Shown here: positions 2,812 through 55,763 of the stretch, piece by piece
Numbering within the stretch: position 1 is the first letter of the stretch
Layout of the letters: each line of letters opens with the position of its first letter
Source: Lingula anatina
Lineage: Eukaryota; Animalia; Brachiopoda
Direction of reading: 5' to 3'
Length of the DNA: 64,000 bases
Assembly (NCBI GenBank): GCA_051362555.1
Contig: CM120642.1
Coordinates: forward strand, 28,086,001 to 28,150,000
The notes under the pieces: generated by a model
The model's input: only the letters and a program-made list of their open reading frames with translations
Database searches by the model: none
Told to the model about the DNA's origin: nothing
Program-made: the position numbers and the translations under genes

Positions 2812-5800
2812 ATGAGGATCTTTTCTCTCGGATTTTTCACTTCGTTTGTCTTCATGGCATACCGTCAGATGAAGTCTACGGTGGAGAGTCTTCGCAGATG
2901 TTTTTGTTGCAAGCGGAAAGCCCTTGTACCTTTAATGCTGTTAATGACTGGGGCGTTGATTTACATCTTCAAATTCATGAACGGTTTTGAAAGCACATGT
3001 AAGCTTTATTCGCCATTAAAGGCATAGAAGACGAAAGAACATACAGCTTATAATTATTTATAGCCTATTAGATACATTCAGTGGAGCCAAGACCATTGAG
3101 ATAGTTGTAACATGTAAAACTTGTTTTTTTAGCTCTTAGTCAGAATTTAATCTGGTAGGATCGCCTGCAACATTCCATTGTCAGTATGTACTATTTGGCA
3201 TATTTGAAAATACTTTTTATATATATAAAGAACATTTTCAATATTGTTCATGTATTGAAAGGCTCAATTTTATGTATTTTCGTGTTACTAGTATATTATT
3301 ATATCTTTATTTCCAACTAAGCCCTATCGTCAGCAGTGGCGAAAGTTAACACAAGTGGCAATTCGGTGGCTATGAACAGGCCCGTTACGTCTGCAGAAAT
3401 CATCTACCGGAAGAATAAAAAGGGTCCTCTTTCCCAGTTTACAAAGGCAATGTCGACTGTGAGACCAGCCAATACTGGCAGCTCGAAATCTTCTACATCG
3501 ACATCCTACAAAGAGGATTCGTTAACTGCAGTTCCACAACACTTGGGCCTACATCAAAATGCGACCTCAGATTTTGTCATGGTCTGGTCGCATTATGCCG
3601 CAATTCCACAAATGTTTATGGATAAAATAGCGACCTTCCTCCAGTTAAATCCAGGGAAACGCGTTGTATTTTTATGTGGAAGCAGTGGATGTATAGATCA
3701 AATAGACGCCAAGTCGTGGAAACACGTAACAGTACTTCGTTTACTGTTATCTGAGTTAGCCCAGGGCACACCACTGGACGATTTTGTCTCTAAATCCGCC
3801 ATTTTGAAATTGCTCATGGGTCGTAAATTTATGGTAGTCGTACATGAAATAAGTGTTTTACTTGCCCTGTGGAGATTTGGTGGACTTTACATAGATATAA
3901 GAAGAATAGTGCCGTCATATTTACCAGCTGAATATTTCAAGGGACAATGGGTGTCCACTGAAGGTATCTTTTTCGTATCCAGATTCGAACAACATTCGTT
4001 GTTCGTTAAAAATGCCATGGTCGAGATTCAGTCGGCCTACAGCAGTCTCAGTAGAAGTCAAATCCAAAATTGGGACACTGCTTCAGTCTTACTGAAATCA
4101 AAAGTTCTAAGCCAGGTAGATAAGAGACAGACTGAAAAGGGCGGTACAGATTCTGTAATAACATTTTTGCAAGAAGAACTCTTTGGGATCCTAAGTTTTG
4201 ACCATCGAGTGAAGGTGGCGAGAGACATCAACGTTGGCGACGAGATTCAAACGCTAGCAGGGCTACAGTTTCTTCCCTTTGTGGACCTATTTGTGGACAG
4301 GGATACCTGGAACGTCACAAATGTAGCAAAACCGCCTGCACAGAAAAAGACTACTGACAATTTTTGGGAAGAAAACACTAGAAGAGAAAGGCATGGAAAT
4401 GCAACAAATTGGTCTTTGTACATGACCCAAAATACAGCAGGTAATGGCATACCTAAAACAAGCGATACAAAAGATCCGTTTAGAAAAGGGTCAATTGTTT
4501 CCAACGAAACCAATAATCTCAAAAAAGGAATCACAATATTTCTTAATGGATGGTATAACGCCGGCAACATGATGTGGCCACCAAAAGTTAATCTAAACCC
4601 TCTGATTTTATCGATGTATTTTGGATCAAGTTTCTGGAAGAAATTACTTACTGAGCCGGGCAGAAATTACCTTCGAAATCATGGCCCTGTGGGTGCTCGT
4701 GATGACGTCACTTTTAAGTTCTTAAAATCCCAAAATTTTTCAGTATATAAATCGGGCTGTTTGACACTTTTAATGCACAATCCCAATCCCACCATTAAAA
4801 CAGAGGATATATTTGTCGTTGATGTGAACAAAAGCGCTTTAGAATTAATTGTTCCATATCAAATACGAAAATCAGCGATAAACGTCACCCACAACTTGCC
4901 CAGTTCGAAGAAATTTGATAGATTAACACGCTACGAAGCCGCAAAAAGTTTGATGGAAAGATATTCACGTGCAAAATTAGTTATAACCTCGCGCATCCAT
5001 TGTGCCCTTCCTTGCGTTGCCATGGGAATTCCAGTAGTTTTTGTAGAAACTGACGTCCTACCTGGAGGTGGAGGGCGTCGAACTGAGGGCTTAACAGAAC
5101 TTTTTCACACAGTTACTGTCGACCTAAGGATGAAAACCTACAGAGGCCTGGACAACTTTAATTGGGACGAACCGGAAATGAATCCAAATCGTGAAATCTA
5201 CATGCGCTTTCGCGCCACCTTGTGGTATGAGATACGCAAATCTCGCGCTTTACGAGAAACGGCGATAACATTTGGGATCGCACCCTTTAAAACATTCAGG
5301 CAGTTAAACAAAAATAAAACAACTGAATCGGTATTCTTTCAAGTGTACACAACGAAGAATCAGACAAAGCGGAACCGCCGTTCACTCGAGAGTATATTTT
5401 ACCACCATCCAAATGCGAAAGTGCGCATTCTAAGCAATGCTTTGACACAAAAGGCGTTTTCTGAGTTCAATGAAGCAGGTTTTCAAGTAGAGGTCGAAAA
5501 CTATACTCTTGAAAACTTACTAAGGCACATTGAAAATCTGGAACCAGACACCTTTGCGGGTCGCTCGAAAGCGTTTTTGAAAAGAATGCCTGTTATTTCA
5601 AAAGGACCATACTGGTATAGCCACGAAACTGACTTGATAAGGTTGTTACTGTTATATCTGTACGGTGGCATTTACATGGACACTGACATCATTTTAGTAA
5701 AGAGTTTAAAAGTTTTGAATAATGTTACTGCATGGGAAGACAGAAAAAATTCCGTGTTAAATGGCGCTGTTGTAAAATTTGATAAGCACAATCCATTTCT

Positions 5801-6167
5801 CCGTGAGTGTATTAAAGAATACCTCCTTAACTATAAGCAGAACGATTGGGCGGCAAATGGACCGCATCTTCTCACCCGCGTGGCGAGAAAACATAGCACG
5901 TGGGTGTGTGACGTCAACAGTTTTGAGGATGTATCGAAAGGCAAGCCATGCATAGTCAGACGTATGTATCGGCAATCGTTTTATCCTATTGAGTGGCCTA
6001 ATGTTACACGAGAATGTTTCCTTGATAAAGGCAGAGTAAACGAAGAGTCCTTTTCTGTGCATCTATATAACAAATTATCGAAAGCGTATGGGGACGCTAC
6101 CAAGCCTGGGACGCTCTGCCGTTACCTTCTGAACATTTTTTGCATTTTCTGTGGAGACTTTGTTTAA
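2812..6167 (+). CDS. Type II membrane multidomain glycosyltransferase: degenerate GT32 + polysaccharide pyruvyltransferase-like + GT32 (A4GALT/A4GNT-like), ~1000 aa, 2 exons
   Basis: Exon 1 is 2812 (or in-frame ATG 2854)..2998, with TM segment ALVPLMLLMTGALIYIFKFM and donor GTAAGC at 2999 (phase 1). Phase-compatible acceptors give exon 2 starts at 3322, 3334 or 3337, reading into the 943-aa ORF ending at 6167. Motifs: ALWRFGGLYIDI; NVGDEIQ, GPVGARD, SGCLTL, VITSRIHCALPCVAMGIPV; TDLIRLLLLYLYGGIYMDTD, NGPHLLTRV, FYPIEW, VHLYNK. Confidence 0.85.
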
Positions 6168-11139: not shown

Positions 11140-14100
11140 ATGGCTGACTCAGAGCAAGTGCAGTGTCAATTTTGTAAAGGAACGTACAAAAAGAGAGGTC
11201 TGGCAAATCATCAACGATCCTGCAAACAAAAACCGCAGGACATAAAACCTGGTGAGGACAGCGAGTTGCCATCAGGCAAAGTTTCCTCTACAGAAAAATG
11301 TGATCAAGAACAATCAGAAACAATACAATGTGAATATTGCGGCAGAACATACAAGAAAAGGGGTCTGGCAACTCATCAACGGTCTTGTAAACAAAAGCCA
11401 CAGGATTCAAAAGAGCAGCGTGAAAGCAGCGAGTTGCAATCAAGCAAAGTTCCTCCTGTAGCAAACCCTAAACAAGAACAATCAAACACGCTGCAGTGTC
11501 AATTTTGCGGTGGAACATATAAGAAAAAAGGACTTGCGACTCACCAACGAGCATGTAAACAGAAGCATATGGACCACGGGGAAGACAGTGGAATTGGAAC
11601 CATCAGAAGTGTTTTGTCTGAAACGGTGACTGACCCGGTGCAAGCAGGAACACTGCTTGGGCGTCTTTGCAACGAGACACAGAAAACTGAACTAGAACCA
11701 CATATGTGGGACTTTAAACAAAACCCAGGGAATATGGCAAGCTGTCCTTTTTGCTGTTGGGAGTTTGCCCACCAAGATTTACCGACACACGTGCAACGTT
11801 GCAAACAAAATCGGAGCAGACTACAGTCGGATTCGCAAACTGGTGAGGTAATTTCTGAAAATCAGAAGATCTCTCCACCGTTACATGAGAAATTGCTGAG
11901 CACATCGAAGTCATATAACCATAAGCGTGGTGGTGCTGCCAAGGCGAATGGAGGTAATTTCTTTTCGTCCTTTACACTATACACTTTCAATGAAAACAGT
12001 AAAAAGGTCCCTTATGTTTTGCTATGTTATAGATATAGCTGTCTTTTTTAGAACCCAAAATTGGAGAGATTTTAACATTTTGTTTTATAGCTTAATAAAA
12101 ATCATTATTTCAATGTAAATTAGTCACAGTCATAGAATTATCGGTCATCATTGATTGATCCAACTCCCCTGAACTTTTGCTGAATTCGATCAGATTAACA
12201 CGCCTCCTGTTGTTTCTTACGTGCTCTTATAATCACTAGCAGCTCTGTATTACACTCAACACCAGGAGGAGGTGTGTGAGTCTATTTAATATGGATCTAA
12301 GGGGGCATTCCCATAGATTTTAGATCGATCTATCCACGTGGGGAGTCTCACTAGATTACTGTCAGATAATCCGGCCTAAATGTCCGTCCCGCCTACTTTA
12401 AGCTGTAAGGGGGTAATTAACTTTCGTGCCCGCTCGGCTAAGAGCTATTTAGCGTGAACCCCAAGGGAGTTAGGTCGATCTAGTTGGATCGATCTAATCT
12501 CTAGGAATGGGGTCTGAGTAGAACGATAATTTCATTGGGAATGAGCCCTAACTTAGTGTTGGTATTTCTCAATATAAAACACGATTGCTTATATATTGTC
12601 CAGTACGTTTTTGAACACGAACCCATGTTTACTATTTCAGCGACTAAAGACGAGTTGTTACTCCTCAAAAAATTCCTGATCACCCCTCAAGGTGGCTATG
12701 CCTCGCTTCCACAGCACGGGGTATCCATTGTGGTCCCAGAGGGGGCAATCACTGAGAAAAGTAAAGAACTGTTTATCGGCATCAGCAATAGGAAGGAAGA
12801 TCGCCCAGTCCTTCCTACTGGCCAGTCAAGAACTAGCCCAATCATCGTGTGCGGGCCTCACGGCACGCATTTCAAAAAGCACGTGCTCCTCAGTTTTCCG
12901 CACAATGTACCAAATGTTGATAACGCAGTTGTAAAGCTCTGGCAATCGCAGACAGATCTGAACCAACAATGCAAATGGGAAGAAGCCGATGCCCGAACGT
13001 GTGTTAACTTCACACCGACAAGATGCTTGCTCTCTTTGAATCATTTTACAAAACACACAACCTCTTGCAGCCAAAAGCGTGTACTTGCAGCTGCGTTCGG
13101 TGACTACGATTGCGACACTGCTAAGCTCTCTCTTAACGTCCACTGCGTAGATGACATGCCTACTGCTCTAAAGGTAGGCCTACATATAGATATTCGGTTT
13201 ATTGTTATTTTTTGTATACGCTCTGTTTGCAATTGTTATTGTTATAGCTTTCAGAGTTAATGTTATTCTCTCCTAAAATTATGGAACCTTTATACTCACC
13301 AACTAGGAAAAACCACGTTTAATTGAAACGATAACAGAAAAAGTTGGGTTAATAAATCTGTTAGATATAAAGTTAGAACAGCGATTTCATTAATATTCAT
13401 AATCTATTACTACCCTGTATGGCAGGAGCTGAATGAACAGATGGCAGAGTTGAACATGCATCGCCTGGCACCAGATGGCAGGTTTGTGTTTCACTCATGC
13501 GTATGCCGCGAGGATGAGGAGCGAGATGTCAAGGTCGCATTGCTGGACCTTGGAAAAAAGTGGAGAGTGATCTCGCCAGGGGGCGCAACTGGTGGTGGCA
13601 CACCTCAGGTATACAGTTTTCTGCAGTCAATTGACCTGGAGCATGGTGGACATATACTCCCTCCCACCATCTCGCTCAAATCCTTATTGTCGAGAATATA
13701 TCTGTCTTATTACATAAAAATAGTAAAATTTCTTCTCTTTTAATAAACAGACTCAGATCTAGCCGTAGTCGTTAACGCCGTCTCCCTGCAATTTCAGTGT
13801 TATACAAATAAAATGAAAACCGTTTTACCTTTTGTCTGTTGGTGCTGTTGTTATATGTAGGCCTATATTCGGTAGCTTTGCTGTCTTGTTTAATGCATTT
13901 ATCCAAGTCATTAATTTAAGTTGCCCCCAGTACTTTTCGTCTTTGTGCTACGGAATCGACGGGTGACTGCTCGGCAAATCAAAAAACATTTTTTTGTAAT
14001 TAATTACATGAAAATACTGCATCTTGATTTTTCAGATGACTTACCTCGATATATTGCAAAACAACTTGCAGGCGTATCACAACAATTTAACTTGGATCCC

Positions 14101-16341
14101 TTTAATGTACATGCTGCATATATGTATTAATCTCGCTTTTTCAGATAATTTACTTCGACGAATTGCAAAACAACTTGCAGCCATATCGCAATTACGTTCT
14201 CAAGCCACATGGAAAGGACCCTGTCCGTGACCTTCACTGTGACATCGACGTCCGTCAGGAGAACCAAGATCCAAAATCATCAAGCGCCAAAATTCTCGTT
14301 AGGAAGTCCATGTCACAGGTATAATGATCTGCATTTTTGGGCTATTATTTATTCTTTTTATTGTGGACCACGTTCATGAACGATCGAGGAACATGTATGG
14401 AATATGAATCTACCAGTACCTACAATGTACATGAATTTCCTCAAAGACGCAGAATATTTATTTTAAGTTCTATTAAAAGCTCTTAGAATTATTTACCCAT
14501 TTTATACTTACAAGGATGCCCTACAGGCTAGTAATCTCACCTCTCTGAGGGAGAGAAGAGATGTTTCATTTAAGAACTTTTTTTACAAAAATCAAGAATT
14601 TTAGTAAGTTACACCATCTGTTTAAAGAAAAGAATCCAAGAAATCTAAGGGTCAGCAACAAATTTTTAATACCAAGAGTGAAAACGGAGGGTATTAAATT
14701 TTAAATTGAAAATTTTAAATTTCATGTAAAATACTGCTCCAAACTGTCTTATAAGTCTTGTTTTTAGCTTTGGTCTTTTACATTGTAACTTATAATTTTT
14801 AGTTACCTTTAAATACCTTATGATTTAATATATGATATATTGTAAAACTTCAACCCTTTAGTTGCGATTATAGCAAATAAATAAATAAATCATTATTAAA
14901 ATACGACTGAATTATCAAAATTTTAAAGGCTTGCTGTCATACATACATCTTTTGGCATATTTACAGATCGTCAAATTCAATACCCCAAGAAGCTCGTCGT
15001 CTGTACAGTTTGAGATCGGCACAGGCACACTAAAATCGGACTTGCATCCAATGCGCTTTTTGTCTCCGAAAGAGCGGACTTCTCTTAACGAAGCTGTCAA
15101 AACCCCAAAGATATGGCGTATTATTGCCGCCGACATTGGGCTGGATGGAACCGCAGAAAGAAAAGGAGTGGATTTGGAGCCTTGTGCTTTGGTCTTTTTT
15201 GCAGTGGGTGAATCGTTTCTGGAAATGCTGAAATTGTTTAGAAGGGTCGAGCGAAAAGCACATGTTAAAATGCAGAAAAGTTTGGACATTATTTATGTAA
15301 GTATACACAATGTGGATTTGTTTTCAGTATGTGCAGGATGCAGTACCTTGTCGTCGTGTGCGTGAACACGCATGTATGTTTGTGTTTGTGGGTTTGTTTT
15401 TGTTTGTGTGTGTGTGGGGGGGGGTGGTGTTTGTGTGTGTTGTGAATGCATGTATAAACAATAGCTGTGTTGTAGAAAGTCTGGGTCATACAGAATATAC
15501 TGAAAGAAACTGAGGTTAATTCTTAGCGAGGTAAAATGTTGAATACCGACCAATAAAGTCTTGACCCGAAAATAAAATGAACACGTCGATGACAGAAAAT
15601 CAAAGAGATTGTTAGTATAAGTAAATGAACTGAAAATCATAAAGTGTACTTAAGTTTAAAAATTGAAAATAAAAAAGCAATTTTCCTTTTAAACGACGAT
15701 TTAAACTGTTCACAGAATTGTGCTCCATAAAGTAGTATTTGAGCTCTAAGTTTCAAAGAGAAATTCGCAAGTCTCTGTCTCCAATGCGATTGACTCGAAT
15801 CTCAAAAACTATAAATTTAATAACAGATTTATGGGCCGTCATTCTGTGAACGGTTTAAGATATGTGGTATATGCCCTTGTGATGAAAAGAAAATAGTATA
15901 TATTTCATGCAAAATTCAAACTTTGCTGCATGAAGACGTTACATTCATTGTCTTCCTTTATTTGTGTACGTCTAAGAGAGACTAATATTATAATAATACT
16001 TTATTTATTTTAATCGACAGAATGCCCGCATCCTAGAAGCAAGCTACGAGAAGTTGAAACGTCACACCCCTGAAATTATAAACAGCGTTGACCCTAAGGA
16101 CGTATATATACAGCTTTTTGCTGATGGGATATTGACATTCTACGACAAAGACGAGATAGAAAAGGCTTGTACAAGATCCACTGTCAATGGGTGCTCCATT
16201 TTACTGAATAAAATCTTTCTTTGTCCAGTGGAGAAAACCCCGATTCCCAAGCTGTGCAATGCGCTGCGCGAACAGAACTGTAAAAGAATGGCAGACCTCC
16301 TCGAGTTGTCGTTAGATGACATTGAACCAAAAGAGACTTGA
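11140..16341 (+). CDS. Zinc finger (4x C2HC)-ZU5-UPA-like-death domain-CARD protein, ~784 aa (copy A)
   Basis: Exons 11140-11953, 12641-13173, 13426-13608, 14145-14318, 14967-15296 and 16021-16341 are all GT-AG and phase-consistent (1,0,0,0,0). C-x2-C-x11-H-x3-C fingers; ZU5 motifs ITPQGG, GVSIVVPEGAI, SPIIVCGPHG.HFKKHVLLSFPH, LNHFT; UPA-like LHCDIDVRQ; DD-like WRIIAADIGL; CARD-like LKRHTPEIINSVDPKDVYIQLFADGILT. Confidence 0.8.
12300..12513. mobile_element. MITE family 2 (GATCGATC-rich, internally palindromic)
   Basis: Termini GGGGCATTCCCATAGA / TCTCTAGGAATGGGGTC; near-colinear with 28188-28401. Confidence 0.7.
15702..15858. mobile_element. Short TIR element in the last intron of copy A (counterpart at ~22294-22434 in copy B)
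   Basis: TTAAACTGTTCACAGAAT / ATTCTGTGAACGGTTTAA; present in both paralogs, so it predates the duplication. Confidence 0.6.
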
Positions 16342-16724
16342 CAATCTTTGAAAAATGAGCTTTGTCCATCGATGGATGCACGTGATAAATTCTAATGGAT
16401 AAATGGGCAAAATAGTAATTAATTTCAAATTTGTTTTTCAATAGTATGATAATCTTTAAATAGTCTTTTTGTATGTATGCATATGCTATCCAGCCAAGTT
16501 TATGTTCGTTTGATTATAGTGTTGCAACTGTGTGCCTAGTTACTTAAACACGCTGAAGTATTATGCATTAAATATTTTCCCCTTTCAACGAGGAAGTTTT
16601 TTAAGGTGCTAATCTAGTACTTTCCCAAAACCTCCCCTTTTTCTCCCCCGGGCTAACGTGGCTCTGACTCATAATCTCTGGAGATAACGAGTCAGAGCTC
16701 TGGCTACAGGGTGCTCATACTTAG

Positions 16725-16951
16725 ACTGGGCTCCCATGCCTAAATCGATCTATCTGGATCGATGTATCTCCCTGGGGAGTGTCACTAAATTGCTGTTAAC
16801 TTAACCGGCTTAATTGTCTTTCACGCCTACCGAATCAGCTAGGGTTAAGATAATAACCCCCTAACAGCTTTACTAAGTGTGACAGACATTAAAGCCTGTC
16901 AAGTTAACAGCAATTTAGTGAGACTCCCAATATCTGTGGGAATGGTCCCTT
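16725..16951. mobile_element. MITE family 2 variant
   Basis: Arms GAGTGTCACTAAATTGCTGTTAACTT / AAGTTAACAGCAATTTAGTGAGACTC; ends GGGAATGGTCCCT. Confidence 0.7.
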
Positions 16952-19001
16952 CAATTTTGTACACTATTTTAGAAGTCCTTGATAGCAGACACAAGGTGGT
17001 GAGTCACCAAAGTTATCTTTGAGTGTTTGTATAAACTAGGGATGGGCGTTTTATGGTTTCCAAATATGCAAGGCATCTTATCTCTTACTGGCTGAACTTT
17101 TGCTTATGAATTTCTGCTTTTTGTACTTGGACTAACGTCTTTTGTGTTCTCTCAAAGACATGGAAATAAGATAAAGTGAATTAAAAAGATATTCGTGTAC
17201 AATAAATAAAAAATTAACTTAAAATCAATCAAATTACAAAGACAAGGCACCCCTAGCTGGGTATATCCGCCTTGGCATTTGATTGAACCACGAGGGAATT
17301 TCATATTTATGAATCAATCTGCCTCGCTTGAATATCTATTCTTCTCAATCTGAAAAAAAGGTAAATTAATTTTTTTCAAATGCTTTAAATGCATGTTTGG
17401 AAGGCATTTCCTAAAGACTTCTTTCTAAAACTACCGTAATATGCAAGGTAGTAGGATCAATACACGGGTGTTAAAAATGCAGGTCTCACAATTAGAGGGG
17501 CAAGCCTATAGAGTATAAATTGCACGAGAAATGCATTCGAGTGCTATATCCCGTTTAGGTTTACCCGCAACTCTCTATCTCTCCCATGTAGGTCAGTTAC
17601 AGTGAAAAGTGACACAAATAGTATTTCACTTTCTCTTTGCAAGAAAAATCCAGATAAGATCGACCTTGTATCGATCACCGGCTGCAATGTCAACTATCTT
17701 GTTAGCCAAAAAGTGTCTCTACGTGCCAGTGCATTAATGATACACAATAATGATGATCTTTGAATGGTAATAACCCTCTTACTTACAAGGATAATAGATT
17801 CAAAAGTCAAGAATGCCAGTTCCACTTCAATACAGCTATCTGAAAACCAAGGCTTCAGTAAAGTCACACTAAAAGATGTAGGTCACATTACAATAAGAGT
17901 ACAGAAAAGATTGTCAGGATTTTTTATCCATGTTAATTTGGGGTTTGATTGTTCTCTTCTCCGATATCGCGGACCAGTTCCACGAACAGAATACTTAATA
18001 CCCGGAAAACTAAAGCGATCATCATGAAAAAATTTATTTTTATCAAACTACCTTATAAGGGGATAGGCGTAGGTGGGTGAATAATTCCCCCCCCCCCCCC
18101 CAAAAAAAAAAAAAATAGGTCTTCCAATGACATGCGCAATTCTGGAGTATAACATGTATAAAGAACGTGCGATTTAAGCTTTGTACATTTTACCACGGGA
18201 GCCTGTGGAATGAAAGAAGGAATTGGCAGGAGTGAACGTTGGTACATGTATATTGCTGGATACAGACTGGGCACGTGCAGTAATTACAAAGGTAGGTTAA
18301 CAAGGGTATGCATTCCAATAAGGTGTAAGCTAGGACTAAATGTCCTAATCAAGGTGTGTGGGACGCACATGCACCCCTTCGGGATTTCTCAGACCCTTTA
18401 AGGATATTTTAACCCTTTATTAGCATCCAGATACGGAAAATGAGTGTTTTATTGAATCTTATTATTCAAAAATGCATCTACATGTATCTTTGTGCTAATT
18501 TAAAAAAATGAAATACCCCTCGAAGATATAAAATATCGGCGTTTATTCTTTTTTGTTGCAACGTGTAAGCATAGACCACTCAAAGCTTTAATTGTCAATT
18601 TAACGCCTTTCTATGAGGTGAGATAGCAATTGGTATAGGGCGTAACTTCATCCCTGAACAAGAATTTATCACGAAGATTGGCGACGTTGACCAGGAGTAT
18701 ATTCGCAACAAACTGGTGCCGTCATTTTTTTTTTTTTTTTTGTTATGGAGTTATGAACCCCTAATTACACATTTTCATGAAACCGAGACTTTTAAAACAA
18801 ATCGCTGGCAGGATTTTGGAGTACTAAATGGTGTTATTCAAACGGCATTAAAACGGTGATCGTGGGTGCTCAGGTAAAAGAGAAATTTATGAAACCGATT
18901 TTTCAGTTTGTACCAAAATCGCAATTACAACGTAATCCGCAAGGTAACATTTGTGTAATGTTAATCAATTTAGTTACTGAGCACTCAAGATTGAGACTGG
19001 G

Positions 19002-19482
19002 ACTGGGTTCCCATGCTTAGATCGACCCAAATGGATCGATCCAACTTCCAGGGCAGTCTCACTAAATTGCTATCGACTAACCGGCTAAACTGAATCAGAT
19101 AGGGGGTAAAGATAATTACCCCTAACAGCTTGACTACTAGACGTGACAGACATCTAGGCCGGTTAAGTTGACAGCAATTTAGTGAGACTCCCCAGGGAGA
19201 TAGATCGATCCAAATACTTTGGGAATGGTCCCTTTGACTGGGTCCCCATGCCTCGATCGATCCATCTGAATCGATCTTACTCCCTGGAGATCCCACTAAA
19301 TTGCTATCAACTTAACCGGCTTTAATGTCTGTCACGCCTACCGAATCAGCTAGGGTAAAAAATAATTACCCCCTTACGGCTTTACAAGGCGTGACAGACA
19401 TTTAAGCCGGTTAGTTTGATAGCAATTTACTGAGACTTCCCAGGGAGATAGATCGATCCAAATATCTGTGGGAATGGTCCCT
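19002..19482. mobile_element. Two tandem copies of the MITE family 2 variant (partial inverted copy at ~19827-19900)
   Basis: Units ~19002-19233 and ~19238-19482, each running from CTGGGT.CCCATGC to GGGAATGGTCCCT with internal inverted arms. Confidence 0.75.
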
Positions 19483-20061
19483 TATTTATTAATCCAAAGA
19501 ATGTATGTAAGGCAGTAACTAAGGATTTTGGGGCGAAGGGTAACAATGTCCTTAAGATGTCGCGCGCCTCTCGAGACAATTGTGGGTACGGTCGTAAGAG
19601 AGATAATATCTTAAGTATGTAGTTAATGGGTAATGTTATACAACATTGATCAAAAAGGTTGTCCCACCCCCATTTCCATGTACCTTTATTTAGAAATGAT
19701 CACCTCACAGCTGTAAATTGTAAGAAAAAGTGATTTTTATTACAGATACCGTGTCTAACGTGATTAATGTTGTAATAAGAGATGTGTATACATAACACTG
19801 GTTGTGGGTAGATTAGGGGAAAACTTAGGGACCATTTCCACAGATATTTGGATCGATCTATATCCCTGGGGAGTCTCAATAAGTTGGTATCAACTTGACA
19901 CCCAGCCCCAGTGGGCTTATAAGTCACTGTTTCATTTATGTTATTCTAATATATTAATGAACACTGTGTGCACACAGTTTTTCTGAGTGCACTTATTTAT
20001 TCCATTTTCGTGACCTATTACTATTTATATCAGCGACTTTATCTATCTACATGTATCTGTC

Positions 20062-20300: not shown

Positions 20301-22905
20301 ATGGCTGACTCAGAGCAAGTGCAGTGTCAATTTTGTAAAGGAACGTACAAAAAGAGAGGTCTGGCAAATCATCAACGATCCTGCAAACAAAAACCGCAGG
20401 ACGTAAAACCTGGTCAGAGCAGCGGGTTGTCACCAGGTAAAGTTTCTCCTGCAGAAAAAAGTGATAAAAAACAATCAGAAACAGTGCAATGTGAATATTG
20501 CGGTAGAGCATTCAAGAAAGGGGGTCTGGCGACACATCATCGGTCTTGTGAACAAAAGCCACAGATTTCAAAACAGCAGCGCAAAAGCAGCGATTTGCAA
20601 GCAAGCAATATTCTTCCTGTAGCAACCTCTGAACAAAAACAAGAACAATCATACACCCGGCAGTGCCAATATTGTGGTGGCACATATACGAGAAAAGGAC
20701 TTGCGACGCACCAACGAGCATGTAAACAAAAGCATGTGGATCACGGGGAAGATAGTGAAACTTTAACCGGCGGCAGTGTTTTCTCTGAAACAGTGACTGG
20801 CCCGGTGCAAGCATATAATGCACTTGCAACCTCTGAACAAGAACAAGAACAATCAAACACCCGGCAGTGCCAATATTGCAGTGGCACATATACGAGAAAA
20901 GGACTTGCGACGCACCAACGAGCATGTAAACAAAAGCATGGGGAAGACAGTGAAACTTCAACCGGCAGCAGTGTTTTCTCTGAAACAGTGACTGGCCCGG
21001 TGCAAGCATATAATACACTTGCAACCTCTGAACAAGAACAAGAACAATCAAACACCCGGCAGTGCCAATATTGTGGTGGCACATATACGAGAAAAGGACT
21101 TGCGACGCACCAACGAGCATGTAAACAAAAGCACGGGGAAGACAGTGAAACTTCAACCGGCGGCAGTGTTTTCTCTGAAACACCTGGTGGTCATCGTTGC
21201 TATGAGGGACAGAAAAGTGGACTAGGATTAGGCAGCAGAAAGTCCATGTCACAGGTATAAAATATTTGTTTTTGGATAATTATTGTTTTTTCTTTTAATT
21301 ATTGAAATGAACGTGACTAGGAACGCGGAACATGTATGGAATATAGATTCACCAATATCTATTTATATGGTCTGTTTATATTTGCCAATGGCTATTTGTA
21401 CTTAAAGGAGGTCAAACTATAAATTTTGTGCACCAGATGTAGCATCATGATTTTTTTATTATTAATAAATAATGTACAACATTTGAGATGTTTACATCTC
21501 AACCTCAGGCGAATGTTTTGCAATGACCTTCCAATCAAGTAGTCTCATTTGTACATACGTAAATTAAATTTCATCACAGACAGGGGTTTATTTATTTAAT
21601 CGTTCTTGAAATACACTTAAATTAGCAACATATCATAAAATATTTGTTTTGGCTAATTTACAGATCGTCAAAAACAATAACCCAGGAAGCTCGTCGTCAA
21701 TTCCGTCTGAGATCGGCTCAGGTGCACTAAATACGGACTTGCCTCCAATACGCTTTTTGTCTCCGAAAGATCGGACTTTTCTTAACAAAGAGATCAAAAG
21801 CCCAAACATATGGCCTGTTATTGCCGCTGACATTAGATGGGATGGAAGCGCTGAAAGAAAGCGGGAGCCGTGTGACGTGGTCTTATCTGCAGTGGGTGAC
21901 TCCTTTCTGGAAATGCTGGAATTATTTAGAAGGGTCGAGGCCAGAGCGCATGTTGACATGAAAAAAAGTTTGGAGATTATTTCTGTAAGTATGAGCAATA
22001 TGGATGTGTTTGCAGTATGTATATAAACCTTGTCATTGTGTCCGTGACCATGCGATTGTGCCAGTTGTGCGTGTATGTGTTGGTGTGTGTTTACGTTTTG
22101 TGCGAGAGTGTGTGTGTGTATGTATGTGTGTTTGTGGTGTTGTGGATGTATGTGAAGTGGTATAATAAGTCTGGAATTTTACATTTTACACCGAATATAC
22201 AGAGAAAAACTGAGGCACATTCTTAGCCATGTATAATGTAAAATACTGAGGAAACTTAAGCAATTTTCCTTTCAAGCCAAGATATACGCAATCTAAAACC
22301 ATTCACAGAAGGATCCAATATGAGCTCCAAATGTTGGAGTGCAATTCACAATAAGTTTTCATCTCCATTATGACTGACTCAAAACTCAAATACTAGAAAC
22401 AGGTTCAAGGACCGTAATTCTGTGAACTGTTTTACATATATAATGTACCCTAAGCTTGTGATTAAAAGATAATCCTAAACGTTTCCTGAAAATTGAAATT
22501 TTGCTGCATGAAGACCTAACATTCATTGCCTGTCGTTATTTATCTACTTCTAACAGATAGTCACGATAGCAAGGCTATTTTACCAATATAAATTAATATT
22601 TTATTTTTAATTGACAGAATGCCCGCATCCTAGAAGCAAGGTACGAGAAGTTGAAACGTCACATCCCTGAAATTGTAAACAGCGTTGACCCTAAGGACGT
22701 ATATATACAGCTTTATGCTGATGGGATATTGACATTCCACGACAAAGACGAGATAGAAAGAGCTTGTACAAAGTCCATGCGGGATGGATGCACCATTTTA
22801 CTGAATAAAATCTCTCTTTGTCCTGTGGAGAAAGACCCGATAACCAAGCTGTGCAATGCTTTGCGCGACCAGAACTGTAAAAGAATGGCAGACCTCCTTG
22901 AGTAG
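20301..22905 (+). CDS. Paralog (copy B): 5x C2HC zinc finger-death domain-CARD, lacking ZU5/UPA, ~520 aa
   Basis: Exons 20301-21254, 21664-21984 and 22618-22905 are all phase 0 with an open frame. The N-terminus MADSEQVQCQFCKGTYKKRGLANHQRSC is identical to copy A. The DD and CARD exons are highly similar to 14967-15296 and 16021-16341. The stop TAG replaces copy A's TTG. Confidence 0.75.
20622..21182 (+). repeat. Coding tandem repeat (204/195-nt units), one C2HC finger per unit
   Basis: GCAACCTCTGAACAA starts at 20622, 20826 and 21021; the translations are near-identical (ATSEQEQEQSNTRQCQYC..TYTRKGLATHQRACKQKH). Confidence 0.95.
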
Positions 22906-28009: not shown

Positions 28010-31000
28010 AGTAAAACGCGGCCCTCCATAGGTTTCGTTTGCAAGCGTACAAAGGGAGAGTAACAGAAAACTTCTATATACAGGGCCATTAAGGTAGGCT
28101 TTTTTTTTTTTTCAAATTTTTCAAGTCAATCATTCTAAAAACATCTTGGACATTTGTGCACTGGCTTTCCAATTTTACTAGACTAAGGCTCTGTTCTCAC
28201 AACTTTTAGATCGATCTATCACCGCGGGGAGTCTCACTAGATTACTGTCAGATAATCCCCCTTAAGTGTCCGTCCCCGCCTACTACAAGCTTTAAGGGGT
28301 AATTAACTTTCGTGTCCGCCCGGCTGACAGCTATTTAGCGTGAACCCCCAGGGAGTTAGGTCGATCCAATGTAGGTCGATCTAATCTATGAGAATGGGGT
28401 GTAAGTCTTAACTTGGCACAGGAAAGAATTTTATGTGTGTGTTTGTTGTTGAAAAAGGACCTTGGTGTATGAGAACAGTTATATGAAGAAAGGTAGGAGG
28501 TGCATAATTATATTGCTGGATAGAGACTTTGGTTTCATGTAAGAATGTTCATTTTCTCCATTTCTCAATTAAAATGGAACAAAAGCTACAAACAGGCATA
28601 ATGGTAGACATCAATATTAGCCACGAGAATCTTATCATTATTATTTCTCTTTGTCCAACTTTGAGGTAGGGGTATACTGTGTCGTCATGAAAAATGCAGA
28701 AAATCATTCAACAAATCTGGTAAAACTGTCACAGACTTAAAATCACATTCAGCTGTTTTATTTTGAATGTTTAATTCTTTTTGATACTGGACAGTCCTGT
28801 AGAAAATCAACCAAGCTGTAGGAAATATTACTCTAATAAGTTTTCATGTACTAAATAATTTCCCTTTTAAGGTCTTCTGTCCTAACTAACACTTACACTA
28901 GGTTGATTGACTTAATTACGAAGGTATTTAATCTAATTGACCTTTACAAATTACAGGTTGACAGACATTAACAAAATTTATCAGGAATTTTGGTATTAAT
29001 GAGAAATTTGAAGTTCAAGTTCATTAACAAATTCCCGTGGCAGCAATCAGTGTTTTTCATAGAAACCAATGCCTAAAAGATTTCCGTGTATGCTCAATCA
29101 GCATATCTAATTTAACAGAGGACAATTCTCTAATTATCCAGAATAACACAGTAAAAGAGTAATTAACATGACATATAGAATGCATTTTAGGTTTCTACAT
29201 CCTTAGAAACGCATGCACCGTGTTGACCAATCCATTTAATGAAGTAATCTAAATAAGCCAGACTCTGATAAAATAAATTAAGCAACCAATAAAATAGACC
29301 TTCAATGAGGTACTTAAAGTTTAAGCCTCATTAACACCCTAATTACTTAATGCAGTACAAGGGCACAAACAAAAAGTACTGATGTACCATTTAGCAGAAA
29401 ACAGTACTCTACTATCTTCAAGGTACCCAGGTACTCAGCAATTTCAAAGATTGGGGGGTGGGGGTTGAAAAAGTAGACCTTTTAACATGAAACCTTTGTG
29501 TACCTGGATCAATTTTTACCCACAGAGCCTTTAGAGGTCAGCATATCAAAATTCAATTTTTCACCTTCAATTTGATTGTATTTTTAATCCCTTTCAAGAT
29601 TGGGTTTCACAATCACCATCTTTTTCTCACTGGATAAAAGGTGTTTTAGTTGAACTCAAATATGTAGAAAATGTTGGGAATGTCCTTCTGCTGTTGCAGT
29701 GGCAAACCGCTGAAACTGCTACACACTGTCTGAAAAGGAAATTGGAATCCCACAGCAAAGATGACTAAATTCATAAGACACTAGACTTACCTCTTGCATG
29801 ACTTTAACAAGGCCAACATCATACACCATGAAGCCGTCTACACCAGCATGTATCTCCTTCAATTTTGAACTGTAAAAAATAGTACAAGACAAACATTAAA
29901 CAAGAATCCTCATGGTGTCTTTGTAATTTGCCAACTTTGGATTCAGAGCAATTTTTCATCAACTACACAAACCATTCACTACACTACTGGTCAATTTTAC
30001 CTTAAAATATTCTGTTCTGCCAACATTGATTATACAAGTGCATAACAATATGTCCAAAGCATAAATGATTGTTGAAATAAAATTTACTCTACATAGAAGA
30101 GTGCAAAATGTTGATAGACTGAAATCTATGATTAAGTAAGATGTGTTCCATCCCCACATGCAACTTTAGCAGTAGAAATAATTACTGTCACAGTATCTTT
30201 TACAAAGGTTATTCTTCTTGTGTTTAGTTATTTTTTAATTTTTACTGGTAATTCAAAAATGCAATTTTCCATAAGACTAGGCTCTAGAAGTCAATAGCTC
30301 AACCCTGAAATTCTGAGGATACTGGAAGTCATTTCTACTTCCAGTCACCATATCAGGGACCTACGCAACTTCAGGGTGCCTTTGATAATAAGAACTTGGT
30401 TTAACTATAATGTGAATTTTTGAACCCATAAAGAACAGCAGACTAAAAGATATGCAGATCAAATGTGGCGATCAACTAAAAAGCTTGCTGCTTTATTCCC
30501 CAATAGATGCTGAATAGATTCCCTGTAGGGATTACACAACAAGCATTCAAGTGGGTCAGCCATATTTGATCCACAGATCTGTTAGTCCTCTGTTCTAAAT
30601 GTGCTCTTATAAAAATTTAGGAAAATGGAAAGAAAATTTATCGGTAATGCTTTAGTCTTAAATAACATGACATCACATTATAATTTTCCTACAAAACCTT
30701 ACTACATGTACCTCAAAATGGTACATGTAAGTTACTCAAACACAGTCTATGAGTTCACCATTTTCTACCCCTCTCATTTTTGTAATCTTGAAATAAAGTG
30801 TGACATCTAAGATTCAGAATAATATAAAAAAAAACTGATGCAGATATACAATTGCAATTTTATTCACAGTGTAAGCTACTACTGGTAACTCCTATTCCTA
30901 GCCATGATATCAAATGTATCTACCTTGCTGCTCTTTCAATCACCTGTTGCCTAGCAACCCAGTCATCTGGCAACAACAATGCTGACATGCCCCCAGTAGC

Positions 31001-49747: not shown

Positions 49748-52700
49748 CTAATAGACAAATCTTGACCCTGAGAGATCTATTCCACCAAACCCACCTCCTC
49801 CCCCACCCCCACCACCCCCTGGACCACAACTCCCAGGGGGTCCCCCCTTGTCGTCAAAATCACTCCATCGATTCCAACTTCGTGCTGGGGACGTGCTAAG
49901 GCTTCTACGAACTGCTTGACTCCGCGCTTCCAATTCCTGCTCCTGAAAATGACAAAAAATATATTATGTATATATATGTATTAAAATATATTATCATAAA
50001 ATATATTTTATTTTTTCAAAACCTTGGTTCAAAATCTCATAGTCAAAAACCGATGGAATTTAATATCATTATCATATCAATAAGAATTATAGTTTAATGA
50101 ACTAATATTTTCAGTTAGATGGGTTGAAGTTTCGGTAAATTACTGACCTGCAAGTACTTAGCATTATCCTGTATCACAGCATCTCTGAGATCTTTCCTGA
50201 GAGGGGGGTCTACCACAGCTGGGTTGATGCTATCATCTAGGTTCAGAATGCTGTCATCAGAAGATATTTTCTTGTAGATCAGGACATAGGCTGTGTCACG
50301 GGAAAATCTTTTTGTCACATTACTGTAAAAAGAAAAATACATTGAGGCAAAAAGCAAAAGCAGGTTCTATCTGAAATAGCGGAAATGATGGAGAATAATT
50401 AGTTCAAAATACATGGGAGGTTATCAAAAAAAAAAGGAAAGAAAAGAAATGTTTTTATAACTAATGATAAGAAAGCAGGGTTTGTCTTACAATAATATTT
50501 TTGTAAAACAACTGCAAAATGCAAAATAAAAACAAAAGTTGGCATAGTCTTGGTTTTTTTTATAACTGACATACAAATGCTTTCAAGATAAAACCATTGA
50601 CTTGAACTGTCACTGGTACATGTTTGTCAGTGTGTTAGAAAAATATATCAAATTAACAAAGCACTTAACACGGTTCTTCCGCTCTAAGCTACCCCTCATT
50701 GAACCTATACTAGTATAATATTTGTCTCAGCTGAAAAAAAATGTTTGGCCGAATCATTCAATTAATACAAAAAGATTGTTTACTTTGAAAAATATTTTTT
50801 GAAAATTTTCTTACTAATTTTTCTATGAAATTTATTCAACAAATTAGCACAAAACAGCATTAAGCTCCTAACCTGAAGGAGTCAAAAGAAGCATAAGTTA
50901 CTCTGCTGTCATTGAACAAGTACCACTTGTCCTGCAAGTAGTCCTGGTCATCACACCTATTCCCGGTCTCCTGGTCAGTCTCCTGGTCAGTCTCCATTCT
51001 GTCCACCAGGCAAGTGACTGGTAGGGAGTGACGGGCATAGCAGTAGTAGTGGCCACATTCACTCGATGCACCTGAGTGTATAACTACTCCACAGAGTGCA
51101 TAAGTGGCCAGAGCAGTCGAATCGTCAAAACCCGAATCTGTTGTCGTCTGCTGTGCAAATGCATGCTGGGGCTTATCAAGTACAGCATAATCGTGGGTTC
51201 GTTGATCAAACTTGAGCGGGGATTGCACTGGATCATCGGTGGTAAATTTCACTTTCAGTTCATCTCTGTGAACAGGTAACATTAAAGTCTTAGGATAGCT
51301 CACCTCATTGAAAAGTTTTGAGCGCGACTGAGTCTTGATGTTGTAAGAGAATCTTAACAAAGTCAGAATTAGAAAGTTTGGGGAGTGAACAATTTTAATA
51401 GACCTTTCCCCATCTTGCAGACCCTGGCACTTGTCACAATAGTACTTATTATCACCTTCCAGCTTTTCTGGCTCAAGATAATAGTCCAGCAGATTTTCCA
51501 ATGTCAAAGAGTCATTTCCGCCATCCTTGTTATCAAGACCTGCAGAGCTTCTACTTAATGTATCTAAACCTTCCAATTTTGATTCTTTGACTTGAGCTGC
51601 ATCCATTTTTGTCTCCCCTGTTTCATGCTCTACTTTCCCCACTGTGTTCCCCTCCTGTTCCATTTCAACATTCTTTTCAGCTGGAGTCGATTTACCTCCT
51701 ACAAGGGAGGAGCCATGGCTTGATATCTTATTTCCATCAGGAAAAGCTAACGGCAAATCAAAGAAGGACTCTGTTCTTGCCGACTCATGTCCACATGTTA
51801 AACACCTACAGGTGGTCATCACTTTCCCACCAAAAGTTTGTCCAACCAGTGTTGGATCCACATCGTCTTTAGTTTCGATGACAATCTCTCTCTGATGCTG
51901 CTGCCCTCTAGTGGATTGTTCCTGTTGAGCAGAGCGCAGTTTTGATTTGTAGAAGTTTGGTTCCACACTGTGTTCTGGTGAGGACATGGGGCTGGGGAGT
52001 TTAACAGGGGATGTAGGATTCCGTTTTCTGCGTAGAGCGGTGAGTTCTTGTTCATGAAGCTGGTCTAGTAAATAATGGAGGAATTCAGCACAGTCCTGTT
52101 GATGTCCAGGTATAAACCATGGGGGCCTGGATACCTTCAAGAAGGAGGTCGGAGAAAAGGCAGCTCTCTACATAAATAAAAAGATGACAGTTTTTCCTTT
52201 TTATTGCATGCATATATATATATATATATATCTCAATGATTTTTTTAATATGTTAATCTACATAGACTGAGATCAAAAATAGACTCATCTAACTATCACA
52301 TTTCAAGCATTACTATATGATCGTGGCCACCAATATTTAGGAGATTTACACTTAAATTTTTCTTCTAACCATAATAAATACAGCCTTTACATAAAACCTT
52401 CTAATCCAAAATTTAATTTTAAATATACAAACATGTAACCATAATTTGAGATCTTTTCATACCTGAGAATGGCCCAGGAAAGCTGCTAAATACTGCATTT
52501 TGACCAATAGAGGGCAGTGTGGATCTGCTGGGGAACTCAACAAAGCTTGACGGAACCTTAAAATAACAATTTACCTTGCCTCAAATACTGAAGTCAAACA
52601 AGACATAACAAAACTATACTCTAAATCTAAAATCTTAATGCAATGTACTGAAACAATACAAGATGATATATGAATAAAAAAAAGCAATTATATGAAAAAC

Positions 52701-55700
52701 ATAATTCTCCTACGGAGGTGAACTGAAGGTGTTAGTACTATTATGATGACTTAATTCAATAAAATAATGACTTTAAGAATATGCATGATTGACAATTGAA
52801 TTTAAAATTAACAGATTACTTAACTAACCAGTCACAACATCAATACGTAACTTAACAAAATAAATAAATAAGAAGAACCTATCATATATCTGATAATTAT
52901 AAAATAATCTTGCCACATACCCATCACACATATAAAGTGCCTGTATCACACTGTTCATATAACATGTGTTCCCCAGGTTGACCAGTCCAACTTTCCCAGT
53001 CTCTGACTTCCTGGTTATCTTGGACAGAACTCCGGTCGTGGATTCCTGTTGAACTCCCCATCTGTACTCTGACAGTCTCTGCTTTATCACATCTGAGGAG
53101 GGTCTGGGAAAATCCTTAAATGAAAGAGAAAAATGAAGTACATATGTTGAAAATAAAATATATAATGCTTGATAAGAAGACTTCATTAAAAAGTAGTAAT
53201 ATATCATAAAACGATACTGTGTGAGTTTGCACGTTAAGTTTCATCTTTGAGTAAGTTTTTACATAACAATTCCCTCAACACCATCACTGCATCATTGAAG
53301 GCAGGCACTGGCTCGTATAACACAAACATGAAGGATAAATTGTTGAAAATTACAACCTAAAGTATGAAGTTTTAGACTTAAAGTCTCAATACAAAAGAGT
53401 ATTGTAAGACACATAAAAAGTGTGAAAAAATCTCACATCCAGATCATTTCTGACATAACTAAGAGGAAATTTGAAAAATATCATTCTTAAATGATTCTTA
53501 AGTTGCTTTCTTCTAACATATTTGGTTTCATTTCCAAACAAATAAGCATCTCACCCTGTATGTTCAAATATTCAATTCAAAATGATCTGAAAAAACAATT
53601 CCTGTAAAATATGAATACATATATTATTACTCACCTTAATGGCTTCCAACACAGGATCATACAACTCAGGAAAGCCTGCATGCAGATACATGAGGCAGTG
53701 CAACATATGTGAAAGTTGCTCTAAGCAGTTTTTACTACTAGGTGAGTTCTCTGCTCCCAGGTGGGCTATCACAGTAGGCACATCGTTGACTATCTGGAAT
53801 TTAAGGAATATGCGTCAAAATACAGACAATCCAACCTGTGTTTATAAAACGTATCTGCACAATCCTTATCAAATCCTGAGCTCGGCATATATACATTACG
53901 TTTACCGGCCTGGCAAAAGTCATTTCTGGAGCTGGGACACTAGAATTTAAGTCACAGTTGCCTGCATGTGCAAGTGATTTGTTAATGGATCGCTTGTCCA
54001 TCAGAGATTGGATTTTTTATTGAATAAGAGCATATTTTTTCCTATATTTTTCCGGAATTTCTTCATACGAAAAAGACAGTGGGCTTACTCTTATACCCAC
54101 AGAACAGAACCAGTCTGTAAAGTTCAATTTTAAACCATATTGAAACAATTAAAAAACAAGAATCCTTGCTATCAAAACAAGATCAGGGTAAACTAAACTG
54201 GGATACATTATTTGAAACTGAGTGAAAATAAAACTCAATCTATCGAATGTGAACAGTACTTTATCCTCACCTTGTGAAATGCATCTGGTGAATGTTGGTA
54301 TCCTAGCAACAGGCTGTAAAGCACCCTGATCACACCCTGACGTGCAAAACGAAACTGCAGCAACCTGAACACCTTTGAAAATTATGAAAATAATATTTAC
54401 TCTTAAGTTAACTGTACTTCAGTTTATATGACTAGGCGTGAAATGCAAAACAAATACTTTAAGTAATACTTAAGTACTTTAAGAAAAAATAAGATCCAAT
54501 TCACACAGAGATGGCGGCAAGGCGAAATAAGAGGAGAACAGACGGTACACACCGTGACACGGGTCTGTCAAAGCACTTGCCAGAGCAGAATTTATGCACT
54601 GACATATGCAGGTTGATGAGTGTGAGAAGGAAGAACTTGATTGTTACCATTAGGTAACCCAAGGTTATCCCGTCCATATCCAGATACACTTAGAACTGGT
54701 GGATCAAAAACGAAAAAAATGAATGGCAAACAAGTACCTAATTTTAAATGTAGGAACTAATTTTAAACCATTTTGCTAACACTTTTCTGAACATGCCTTC
54801 TATATTCCATAAACTTACCATGTCAATGTTCTCCTCTGTGATCTTAATCAATATAGTATACTTGTGGACACTTGCCAGGCCCTGTAAAAATGAACCCAAC
54901 CACTCGTCCACCCCATCTGACTTTGGCCACCTAAGCCAGTCCAGCATTCTGGTCAATGCTATGGTCATCATGTTGTCATTTATCCTAGGATCAGTGACCA
55001 CACTCTTGACCACTGTCTTCCTCATGTCTTTTGGTATGTGCTGTACCAGGGAAGCCAGGCAGAACGGGGGACCAAAGACCTCATCTGTACAAGAGATAAG
55101 CCTGAAGACTGTCTGTAGGCAGCGGACTATGGTATCTGTGTCACTATTGTCCCAGATATGTTTTAAGAGAGAAGCAACCTCTTCAACGTGATGAACAAAT
55201 TCTGGTAATTTCTGCAGTTCACCAGCACCATCTGGTGGTTGTAACATGCCCAAAGCTGTGATAAGGGTCTCGCAGAAGGGTCTACTAGCTTCACCTTGAG
55301 GTATACAGTTTCTGAACTCCAGTAAAAATTTGGCAAACTTTCCAACCACCTCTGCATCTGGGTGTTCCCTCACAAAGCTTGCCCCTTTGACTGCTATGAT
55401 TTGACTAAGGTGCATGAAACTAGGGCTTGCCTGAAGTATTCTCATGCTCTCATGAATGAGGTCCACTAATGCACCACTATTCTGATACTGTCCAGACAAC
55501 AAAGAAAGTAACACCTCCTTGGTGAAGAAACTCTCAAATGTTGCTCTGTTATGTCTGGCCCATGATATGTATATCTTAAGACCTTCTTCGTATTCCACTT
55601 GTGTTTTTCCATCAATCACACAATGCATGGATATATTCAATACTTCTGATATAGACCCTACTTGCTGAACTAATTTGCCTTTCTCTGCTATCATGTTGAA

Positions 55701-55763
55701 TAAGGCCCTCTTCAGAGGTTCTGGTTTGTCGGAGGCAAGCACACCTCTTAATATCTGTTCCAT
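49748..55763 (-). CDS. USP38: Ubiquitin carboxyl-terminal hydrolase 35/38 ortholog, ~1052 aa, 8 coding exons
   Basis: Exons 55763-54819, 54372-54271, 53793-53635, 53114-52921, 52556-52463, 52167-50873, 50322-50148, 49942-49748. Cys box GLVNLGNTCYMNSVIQAL, QQDCAEFL, His box HSGASSECGHYY, WYLFNDSRV, TAYVLIY. The N-terminus MEQILRGVL and the Gly-rich C-terminus ending RFVY resemble USP35/38. Confidence 0.92.

Follow-up and report, generated by a model that had tools for sequence, protein, structure and literature searches.

A candidate self-cleaving zinc finger-ZU5-UPA-death domain-CARD protein and its tandem paralogue in the brachiopod Lingula anatina

Does a brachiopod gene that joins zinc fingers to a ZU5-UPA module and two death folds encode a sensor that cuts itself and sets a signalling fragment free? 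The question is raised by a gene, here called gene A, in a 64,000-nucleotide stretch of the Lingula anatina genome (GenBank assembly GCA_051362555.1, contig CM120642.1, positions 28,086,001 to 28,150,000 of the forward strand), referred to below as the window and numbered from its first letter. The reading favoured here, with a probability of roughly 0.4, is that the gene A protein self-cleaves within ZU5, stays shut through ZU5 lying on the death domain (DD), and frees a UPA-DD-CARD fragment when its N-terminal half is removed.

Gene A lies at window 11140-16341 (+) and has six exons, all introns GT-AG, whose joined open reading frame (ORF) has 784 aa plus stop. A preliminary description, made from the letters alone, had reported an intact spliced ORF of this length with four fingers and the tripeptide HFT at 13042-13050; translation of the exons and RefSeq XP_013381088.1 (L. 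anatina) bear this out. The RefSeq protein follows the same exon chain with 4 of 784 residues different (99.5% identical); NCBI lists it as "uncharacterized" and UniRef as "Netrin receptor UNC5". The features of gene A are as follows (a slash in a motif marks the bond that is or would be cut).

11140-11953 (+), exon 1, coding part (aa 1-271): polar N-terminus, predicted disordered, with four C2HC fingers (zf-C2HC_2; model confidence mostly <50).
11164-11223, 11329-11388, 11497-11556 and 11743-11802 (+), the four C2HC fingers, C-x2-C-x11-H-x3-C at aa 9, 64, 120 and 202.
12641-13173 (+), exon 2: ZU5 (~aa 278-414, nt 12658-13068) and start of UPA, from Pfam and the model; both flanking junctions are seen in RNA.
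13042-13050 (+), predicted autoproteolysis site HF/T (H406-F407/T408), in the turn separating the last two ZU5 strands, from alignment of homologous sites.
13426-13608 (+), exon 3: UPA, from the ORF, an RNA junction and the model.
14036-14082 (+), incomplete second copy of exon 4's acceptor and 5' end; RNA joins 13608 to 14145 instead.
14145-14318 (+), exon 4: end of UPA, from the ORF and the model; its 3' junction is absent from the RNA listings.
14967-15296 (+), exon 5: linker and divergent DD (~aa 596-680), from the model, a DD profile and fold matches.
16021-16341 (+), exon 6: CARD (~aa 683-775) and stop, from Pfam, the model and fold matches.

The acceptor at 14036 was rejected for exon 4, as it brings an in-frame stop and 14145 is the one used in RNA. 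Extension of the N-terminus into the 17 open codons 5' of the ATG is unlikely because most reads of two RNA runs (X7 and X9) have a 1-base insertion there; these reads are probably derived from transcripts like those of the neighbouring gene B, described below.

In Pfam searches of the gene A protein, ZU5 was matched at E 7e-18 (65.1 bits, cut-off 21) and zf-C2HC_2 at E 9e-8, CARD_2 (E 1.6e-4) and UPA (E 0.007) fell under their cut-offs, and no Death or FIIND family was found at E<=10. The best sequence match in PDB was UNC5B (E 2e-12). An AlphaFold2 model of the 784-aa protein, built on an 83-sequence alignment, has 354 of 784 residues at a predicted local distance difference test score (pLDDT) >=90; the ordered parts are ZU5 (278-414), UPA (416-565), DD (596-680) and CARD (683-775), and aa 1-275 are mostly at pLDDT <50. 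The best structural match is UNC5B 541-942 in its closed ZU5-UPA-DD arrangement (3g5b), on which residues 277-679 superpose with a similarity score Z of 23.5 and a root-mean-square deviation (rmsd) of 4.5 over 348 aligned positions, and Foldseek agrees with the fold matches of the full model. Pfam, alignment and model support the order fingers-ZU5-UPA-DD-CARD and the position of the cleavage site as first described. The term "FIIND-like" used at that stage holds for the fold, the model matching the CARD8 FIIND (7jkq_B) with Z 14.8 and rmsd 4.2 over 246 aligned positions, but not for the sequence: the structural matches to CARD8 and NLRP1 share 7-9% identity, and of the 65 PDB matches to a profile of gene A relatives, the 60 listed include no chain of NLRP1 or CARD8. 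As judged by sequence, the module is UNC5C-like and not of the FIIND family. No hydrophobic segment is present in aa 1-275, where the maximum 19-residue hydropathy is 0.49 versus 3.2-3.4 in the relatives P0027 and P0060, and the product is predicted to be a cytosolic UNC5C-like protein with added fingers and CARD.

The two C-terminal death folds proposed at the outset are both found, the CARD clearly and the DD weakly but consistently. The CARD superposes on the Apaf-1 CARD with Z 15.1 and rmsd 1.1 over 88 aligned positions; the Apaf-1, RIG-I and MDA5 CARDs are tied at Z 14.3-15.1. The DD scores 8.2 bits against a family DD profile built from 59 non-Lingula segments, a score reached by none of the 900 reported of 1000 shuffles (maximum 7.6). 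Because the alignment behind the full model is rich in canonical DDs, the domain was also refolded separately from five Lingula sequences, giving a best model at pLDDT 83.9 and others at 60-70. Each of the 35 best matches of the lone domain is a death fold, as judged from entry titles (indirectly for two); the DDs of IRAK2 (Z 6.0), p100, Pelle and p105 come first, with all Z <=6.0 and so below the tool's bar for helical bundles. Foldseek gave no match of the lone domain at E<=0.001, and DD entries take seven of its first nine places (E 0.7-4.5). The ESM Atlas places aa 585-784 near Death, UPA and CARD clusters with scores <=0.80, a lead only. From the models, the exon 5 fold is taken to be a divergent DD whose third helix is poorly formed.

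The HFT tripeptide (aa 406-408) falls on UNC5B Q676-L677-G678 in a profile alignment of relatives, with UNC5B numbering anchored on C663, E666 and C670. UNC5B L677 corresponds to F296, the scissile residue of CARD8 (PMC3210808), and F407 is therefore its equivalent. H359 aligns to UNC5B H624, the counterpart of CARD8 H252 that is required for cleavage (PMC3210808), and L354 aligns to UNC5B V619, a residue of the hydrophobic ZU5-DD interface (PMC3210808); the nucleophile of such autoproteolysis can be Ser, Thr or Cys. The model places the site in a turn that joins strand 399-406 to strand 409-414, the last of ZU5. Conservation was assessed in the best 150 of 428 matches from a 50%-identity representative library, which gave 125 proteins and 130 ZU5 segments, 115 of them covering the site. 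HFT is present in 65 of the 115 and HF[TSC], HF followed by T, S or C, in 78; by contrast it is found in 0 of the 8 matches taken for netrin receptors because of their Ig/TSP ectodomains. A working site would be expected to show this pattern. HF/T being the commonest motif in related invertebrate ZU5-UPA-DD proteins, self-cleavage of the gene A protein is likely but not special to it. Named relatives of the HF[TSC] class come from a crinoid, a sea star, hemichordates, amphioxus and Lingula, several of them labelled "UNC5C-like". ZU5 is reported to descend from an ancient autoproteolytic domain whose activity is kept by UNC5CL (PMC10084454), and predictions of ZU5 autoproteolysis exist for further invertebrate immune proteins (PMC8195603, PMC3482391). 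Judging from motif and alignment, T408 probably attacks the F407-T408 bond.

The proposed mechanism runs as follows. Attack of T408 on the F407-T408 bond would yield pieces of 407 aa (45 kDa) and 377 aa (43 kDa), held together by the last ZU5 strand, and ZU5 would cover the DD as in closed UNC5B, an arrangement that the model predicts. The disordered finger region may act as bait or sensor, its cutting or tagging sending the N-terminal piece to the proteasome as in CARD8 and NLRP1; the chances of this step are about even. In CARD8 the C-terminal piece is reported to be released when the N-terminal half is removed, and the N-terminal degron region is disordered (PMC9213247), which the 275 N-terminal aa of gene A at low pLDDT resemble. 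The freed UPA-DD-CARD could oligomerise through UPA, with CARD and DD recruiting CRADD, a Lingula CARD caspase (caspase-Y) or a kinase of the IRAK type. Gene B, which shares the fingers and DD-CARD but has no ZU5-UPA, might be an abundant adaptor or damper of the pathway. Lingula is reported to be without APAF-1, PIDD, PYCARD and caspase-2 and to have six caspase-Y and CRADD (PMC11463336); gasdermin E is also reported (PMC11508797), so that a CARD caspase would be the natural target. With CARD8 and NLRP1 the gene A protein shares the ZU5-UPA fold, the equivalent scissile Phe and structural His, a disordered N-terminus and a terminal CARD, but it differs in having no FIIND profile match, HF/T rather than SF/S, a DD between UPA and CARD, and no NACHT-LRR. 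FIIND proteins are also restrained by DPP8/9. That the protein works like CARD8 or PIDD1 is inferred by analogy.

The cassette is not confined to gene A, a point that the first description missed, along with the neighbouring gene B. ZU5-UPA followed by a homologous DD-CARD was found in three more Lingula proteins with differing N-termini: XP_013411131.1, with NL/C at the site; XP_013381545.1, which has an additional N-terminal DD-CARD and also NL/C; and XP_023931638.1 (P0006), in which a HELZ2-like N-terminus of RNB and SF1 helicase precedes ZU5-UPA with HF/T and a DD-CARD-like tail (CARD match weak, E 0.007; DD read by eye). The last is a candidate RNA sensor sharing gene A's cassette. A further protein, XP_013394837.1, has DD-CARD without ZU5. 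These counts are a lower bound, coming from 50%-identity representatives and no whole genome. In a quick tree of 121 of the 130 segments the ZU5 of the Lingula cassette proteins groups with that of gene A (support of 89 in the Shimodaira-Hasegawa-like approximate likelihood ratio test, not starred). CARD profiles matched no non-Lingula sequence among the 115 of 125 proteins scanned (the other 10 are fragments of 88-244 aa), and a search with gene A's CARD agrees, the CARD-bearing ZU5 relatives among the best 150 matches being from Lingula only. ZU5 joined to gene A-type fingers occurs in the gene A protein alone among the 125. The different N-termini on one cassette fit interchangeable sensor modules; death-fold domain shuffling is common in marine invertebrates. 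With APAF-1, PIDD and ASC reportedly missing and six CARD caspases present, the Lingula cassette proteins are candidate activators of the latter.

A wider proposal, which we regard as doubtful, is that Lingula has evolved degradation-gated inflammasome-like sensors independently of NLRP1 and CARD8. In these, an UNC5-type ZU5-UPA-DD-CARD would carry swappable baits (fingers, a HELZ2-like helicase, or DD-CARD) and activate the six caspase-Y without APAF-1, PIDD or ASC, gene A being paired with a cage-less neighbour. The architecture was not found described in published titles and abstracts (subscription journals and supplements lay outside this scope); its novelty may also depend on the source data for domain architectures in PMC8195603. 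Word-indexed homologue searches returned only XP_013381088.1; they are insensitive and give no evidence of absence.

The strongest of the rival explanations, itself unlikely, is that self-cleavage is constitutive as in PIDD1 or UNC5CL and that the processed UPA-DD-CARD is an NF-kB or apoptotic scaffold set by expression or location. The UNC5/UNC5CL-type sequence of the module, the autoproteolytic activity that UNC5CL retains (PMC10084454), and the IRAK2, p100/p105 and Pelle DDs at the head of the DD matches speak for it, though the Z-scores of the latter are too low for assigning a partner class. Like UNC5CL and the invertebrate "UNC5C-like" proteins, gene A has an UNC5-type ZU5-UPA-DD with an intact HF followed by S or T and no Ig/TSP ectodomain; unlike UNC5CL it has no transmembrane helix, an added C-terminal CARD, N-terminal C2HC fingers and a strongly divergent DD. 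Without an N-terminal membrane anchor it is not a strict UNC5CL orthologue, and a membrane-anchored UNC5C-like protein exists separately in Lingula (P0027). The terminal CARD and long disordered N-terminus are nearer CARD8 than UNC5CL. PIDD1 resembles gene A in an HF/S-type cleavage that releases UPA-DD and in CRADD as a possible partner, and differs in having two ZU5 rather than one, LRRs, of which gene A has no match, and neither the added CARD nor the fingers; lophotrochozoans reportedly have no PIDD (PMC11463336). The UNC5A-D netrin receptors share the closed ZU5-UPA-DD arrangement (3g5b) with the gene A model, but they have the Ig/TSP1 ectodomain and membrane helix that gene A lacks, and the receptors among the matches have lost HF[TSC].

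Rated slightly lower is the explanation that the fingers bind a ligand, a nucleic acid or protein polymer, and cluster DD-CARD directly in the manner of AIM2- or RIG-I-like sensors, with ZU5-UPA as a tuning device and gene B as the main, uncaged form. Gene B is a tandem duplicate ~4 kb from gene A (window 20301-22905, 520 aa) that encodes fingers, DD and CARD without ZU5-UPA, which is missing because the exon for the fingers continues in frame into the end of exon 4. Its exons are as follows.

20301-21254 (+), exon 1: five C2HC fingers, then, in frame, the end of exon 4 of gene A (last codons and donor), from sequence comparison with gene A.
21664-21984 (+), exon 2: linker and DD, from sequence comparison with gene A.
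22618-22905 (+), exon 3: CARD and stop, 11 aa shorter than in gene A (CARD_2 30.8 bits, above cut-off).

Gene B is identical to RefSeq XP_013402232.1 at 351 of 360 aligned residues; the RefSeq protein has four fingers and gene B five. Fingers 3-5 (window 20622-21182) are near-identical repeats of 60-65 codons with 92-94% DNA identity, their copy number differing from RefSeq, and are a recent expansion. The protein resembles the bipartite adaptor CRADD/RAIDD, which like gene A joins DD and CARD in one chain, with fingers added. The domain order is CARD-DD in CRADD and DD-CARD in genes A and B. The ratio of nonsynonymous to synonymous substitution rates (dN/dS) between A and B is 0.26 (P 0.002) for fingers 1-3 and 0.46 (P 0.085) for the CARD. 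B-like transcripts appear to be about ten times more abundant than those of gene A, an estimate from reads on gene A that rests on the depth pattern there and on 12 of the 20 listed read differences on exon 1 being gene B's bases. An intact ORF without ZU5-UPA, fingers under purifying selection and of variable number, and this excess of reads favour a ligand-binding role, as do a basic KKRGL/KKKGL patch in fingers 1-3 of gene A, the RNB and SF1 helicase N-terminus of paralogue P0006, and the RIG-I and MDA5 CARDs among the top CARD matches (Z 14.3-14.7). On the other side, the RIG-I and Apaf-1 matches are tied, the fingers match just Pfam zf-C2HC_2 and, weakly, C2H2 fingers, with no ligand known, and gene A keeps the cleavage motif and H359 in full. 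Genes A and B form a natural with/without comparison for the ZU5-UPA cage.

Two other identities of the fingers were considered and set aside. UBZ4 fingers have the spacing C-x2-C-x11-H-x3-C and, at the second residue ahead of the final Cys, an Asp; the gene A spacing fits, yet the Asp is present in 0 of 4 fingers and no zf_UBZ match was found. A viral or mobile origin is unsupported, with no relatives in viral contigs and weak C2H2 matches alone in PDB. The sole non-Lingula match of this finger type is P0089, a 278-aa protein from a short contig with two fingers of RRGL-x-x-HQR pattern and no Pfam match.

RNA evidence came from the raw reads of six runs, chosen by species label, from animals several percent diverged from the sequenced one. 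Gene A exons are covered in X7, X8 and X9, X5 has almost no coverage, and X1 and X4 have none. Four of the five junctions were seen: 11953>12641 (6 reads in X7, 4 in X9), 13173>13426 (3 in X7, 1 in X8, 8 in X9; total 12), 13608>14145 (10, 1 and 2; total 13) and 15296>16021 (47, 45 and 55). The linkage of the exons by RNA, by which the first description had proposed to be judged, thus holds for junctions 1, 2, 3 and 5, with junction 4 unseen. Read depth differs along gene A: it is >100 around the first finger and 69-91 where the CARD exon begins, against ~2-10 in the ZU5 exon. Within intron 4 (window 14381-14928), RNA depth rises to ~50 with loose ends at 14478; this probably is a repeat transcribed elsewhere or, less probably, the 3' untranslated region of a short isoform. 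Short inverted-repeat copies resembling miniature inverted-repeat transposable elements, at 12296-12520 (gene A intron 1), 16720-16951, 19001-19899 and 28204-28406, show very high RNA depth from other loci.

Several points weigh against the favoured reading of a caged, degradation-gated protein. Junction 14318>14967, which links the UPA exon to the DD exon, is not listed in any of the six RNA runs; at the rate of the two preceding junctions and with equal detectability, all runs would stay below the 3 reads needed for listing with a probability of ~0.005. Detection may have been unequal, given diverged animals and a fast-evolving exon 5 linker. The DD is divergent (Z <=6, no Pfam Death match) and its dN/dS between genes A and B is 0.62, not significant, a sign of weak constraint. 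The low N-terminal pLDDT is partly due to a shallow alignment there, and the UNC5B-like packing may have been favoured by an alignment rich in ZU5-UPA-DD proteins. Two Lingula paralogues have NL/C in place of HF/T. Gene B, more abundant, with selected fingers and no ZU5-UPA, may mean that fingers and DD-CARD act without cleavage. Finally, PIDD1 and UNC5CL share the cleavage chemistry, and degradation gating is not established for them in the sources cited.

Least likely of all is a main product other than the 784-aa chain, the transcript mostly ending or diverging after the UPA exon or gene A being a young shuffled duplicate of little function: the unseen junction, a stop one codon after the exon 4 donor if read through, the low depth and the lack of a full-length relative found outside L. 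anatina (in searches partly insensitive) would fit, but RefSeq models the junction, homologous donor and acceptor are kept in gene B and XP_013402232.1, three Lingula paralogues carry ZU5-UPA and homologous DD-CARD in a single chain, exons 5-6 hold an open frame that continues in phase, and in the model the DD packs against ZU5-UPA. The full-length 784-aa chain is, on this support, highly probable.

Other HF/T ZU5 fusions were encountered among the relatives. In two hemichordate proteins, P0021 (XP_070578737.1) and P0030 (XP_077998854.1), a Rel homology domain is fused to ZU5(HF/T)-UPA-DD; by sequence, each could be an NF-kB-like factor that frees its DNA-binding half by self-cleavage. LRR-TIR-ZU5, SH2-ZU5-UPA-DD and LRAT-ZU5-UPA (possibly a merged model) occur among P0053, P0031 and P0143. 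A RHIM-like motif stands immediately N-terminal to the DD in P0003 (aa 838-855) and P0004 (aa 559-575), both of which have NL/C at the ZU5 site, with a similar one in P0051, and is degenerate or absent in genes A and B; the pattern, based on the RHIM consensus, matched P0003 and P0004 and 0 of 150 others, with no Pfam RHIM match at E<=10. Elsewhere in the window, 3321-6164 (+) is a 948-codon stop-free frame, apparently intronless, with polysaccharide pyruvyl transferase and alpha-1,4-glycosyltransferase domains, a fusion unusual in animals, and 50863-55772 (-) holds exons of a USP38-like deubiquitinase.

What distinguishes this locus is the modular Lingula family, the gene pair with and without ZU5-UPA, and a candidate for a missing caspase activator; the cleavage site itself is ordinary. 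The invertebrate HF/T class is large, many of its members are mislabelled as netrin receptors, and no cleavage tests were found in the literature searched. If the proposal is true, "functional degradation" sensing, so far the property of vertebrate NLRP1 and CARD8, would have arisen twice, the second time in a protostome and on a different ZU5 branch, and the missing activators for the CARD caspases of brachiopods would be supplied.

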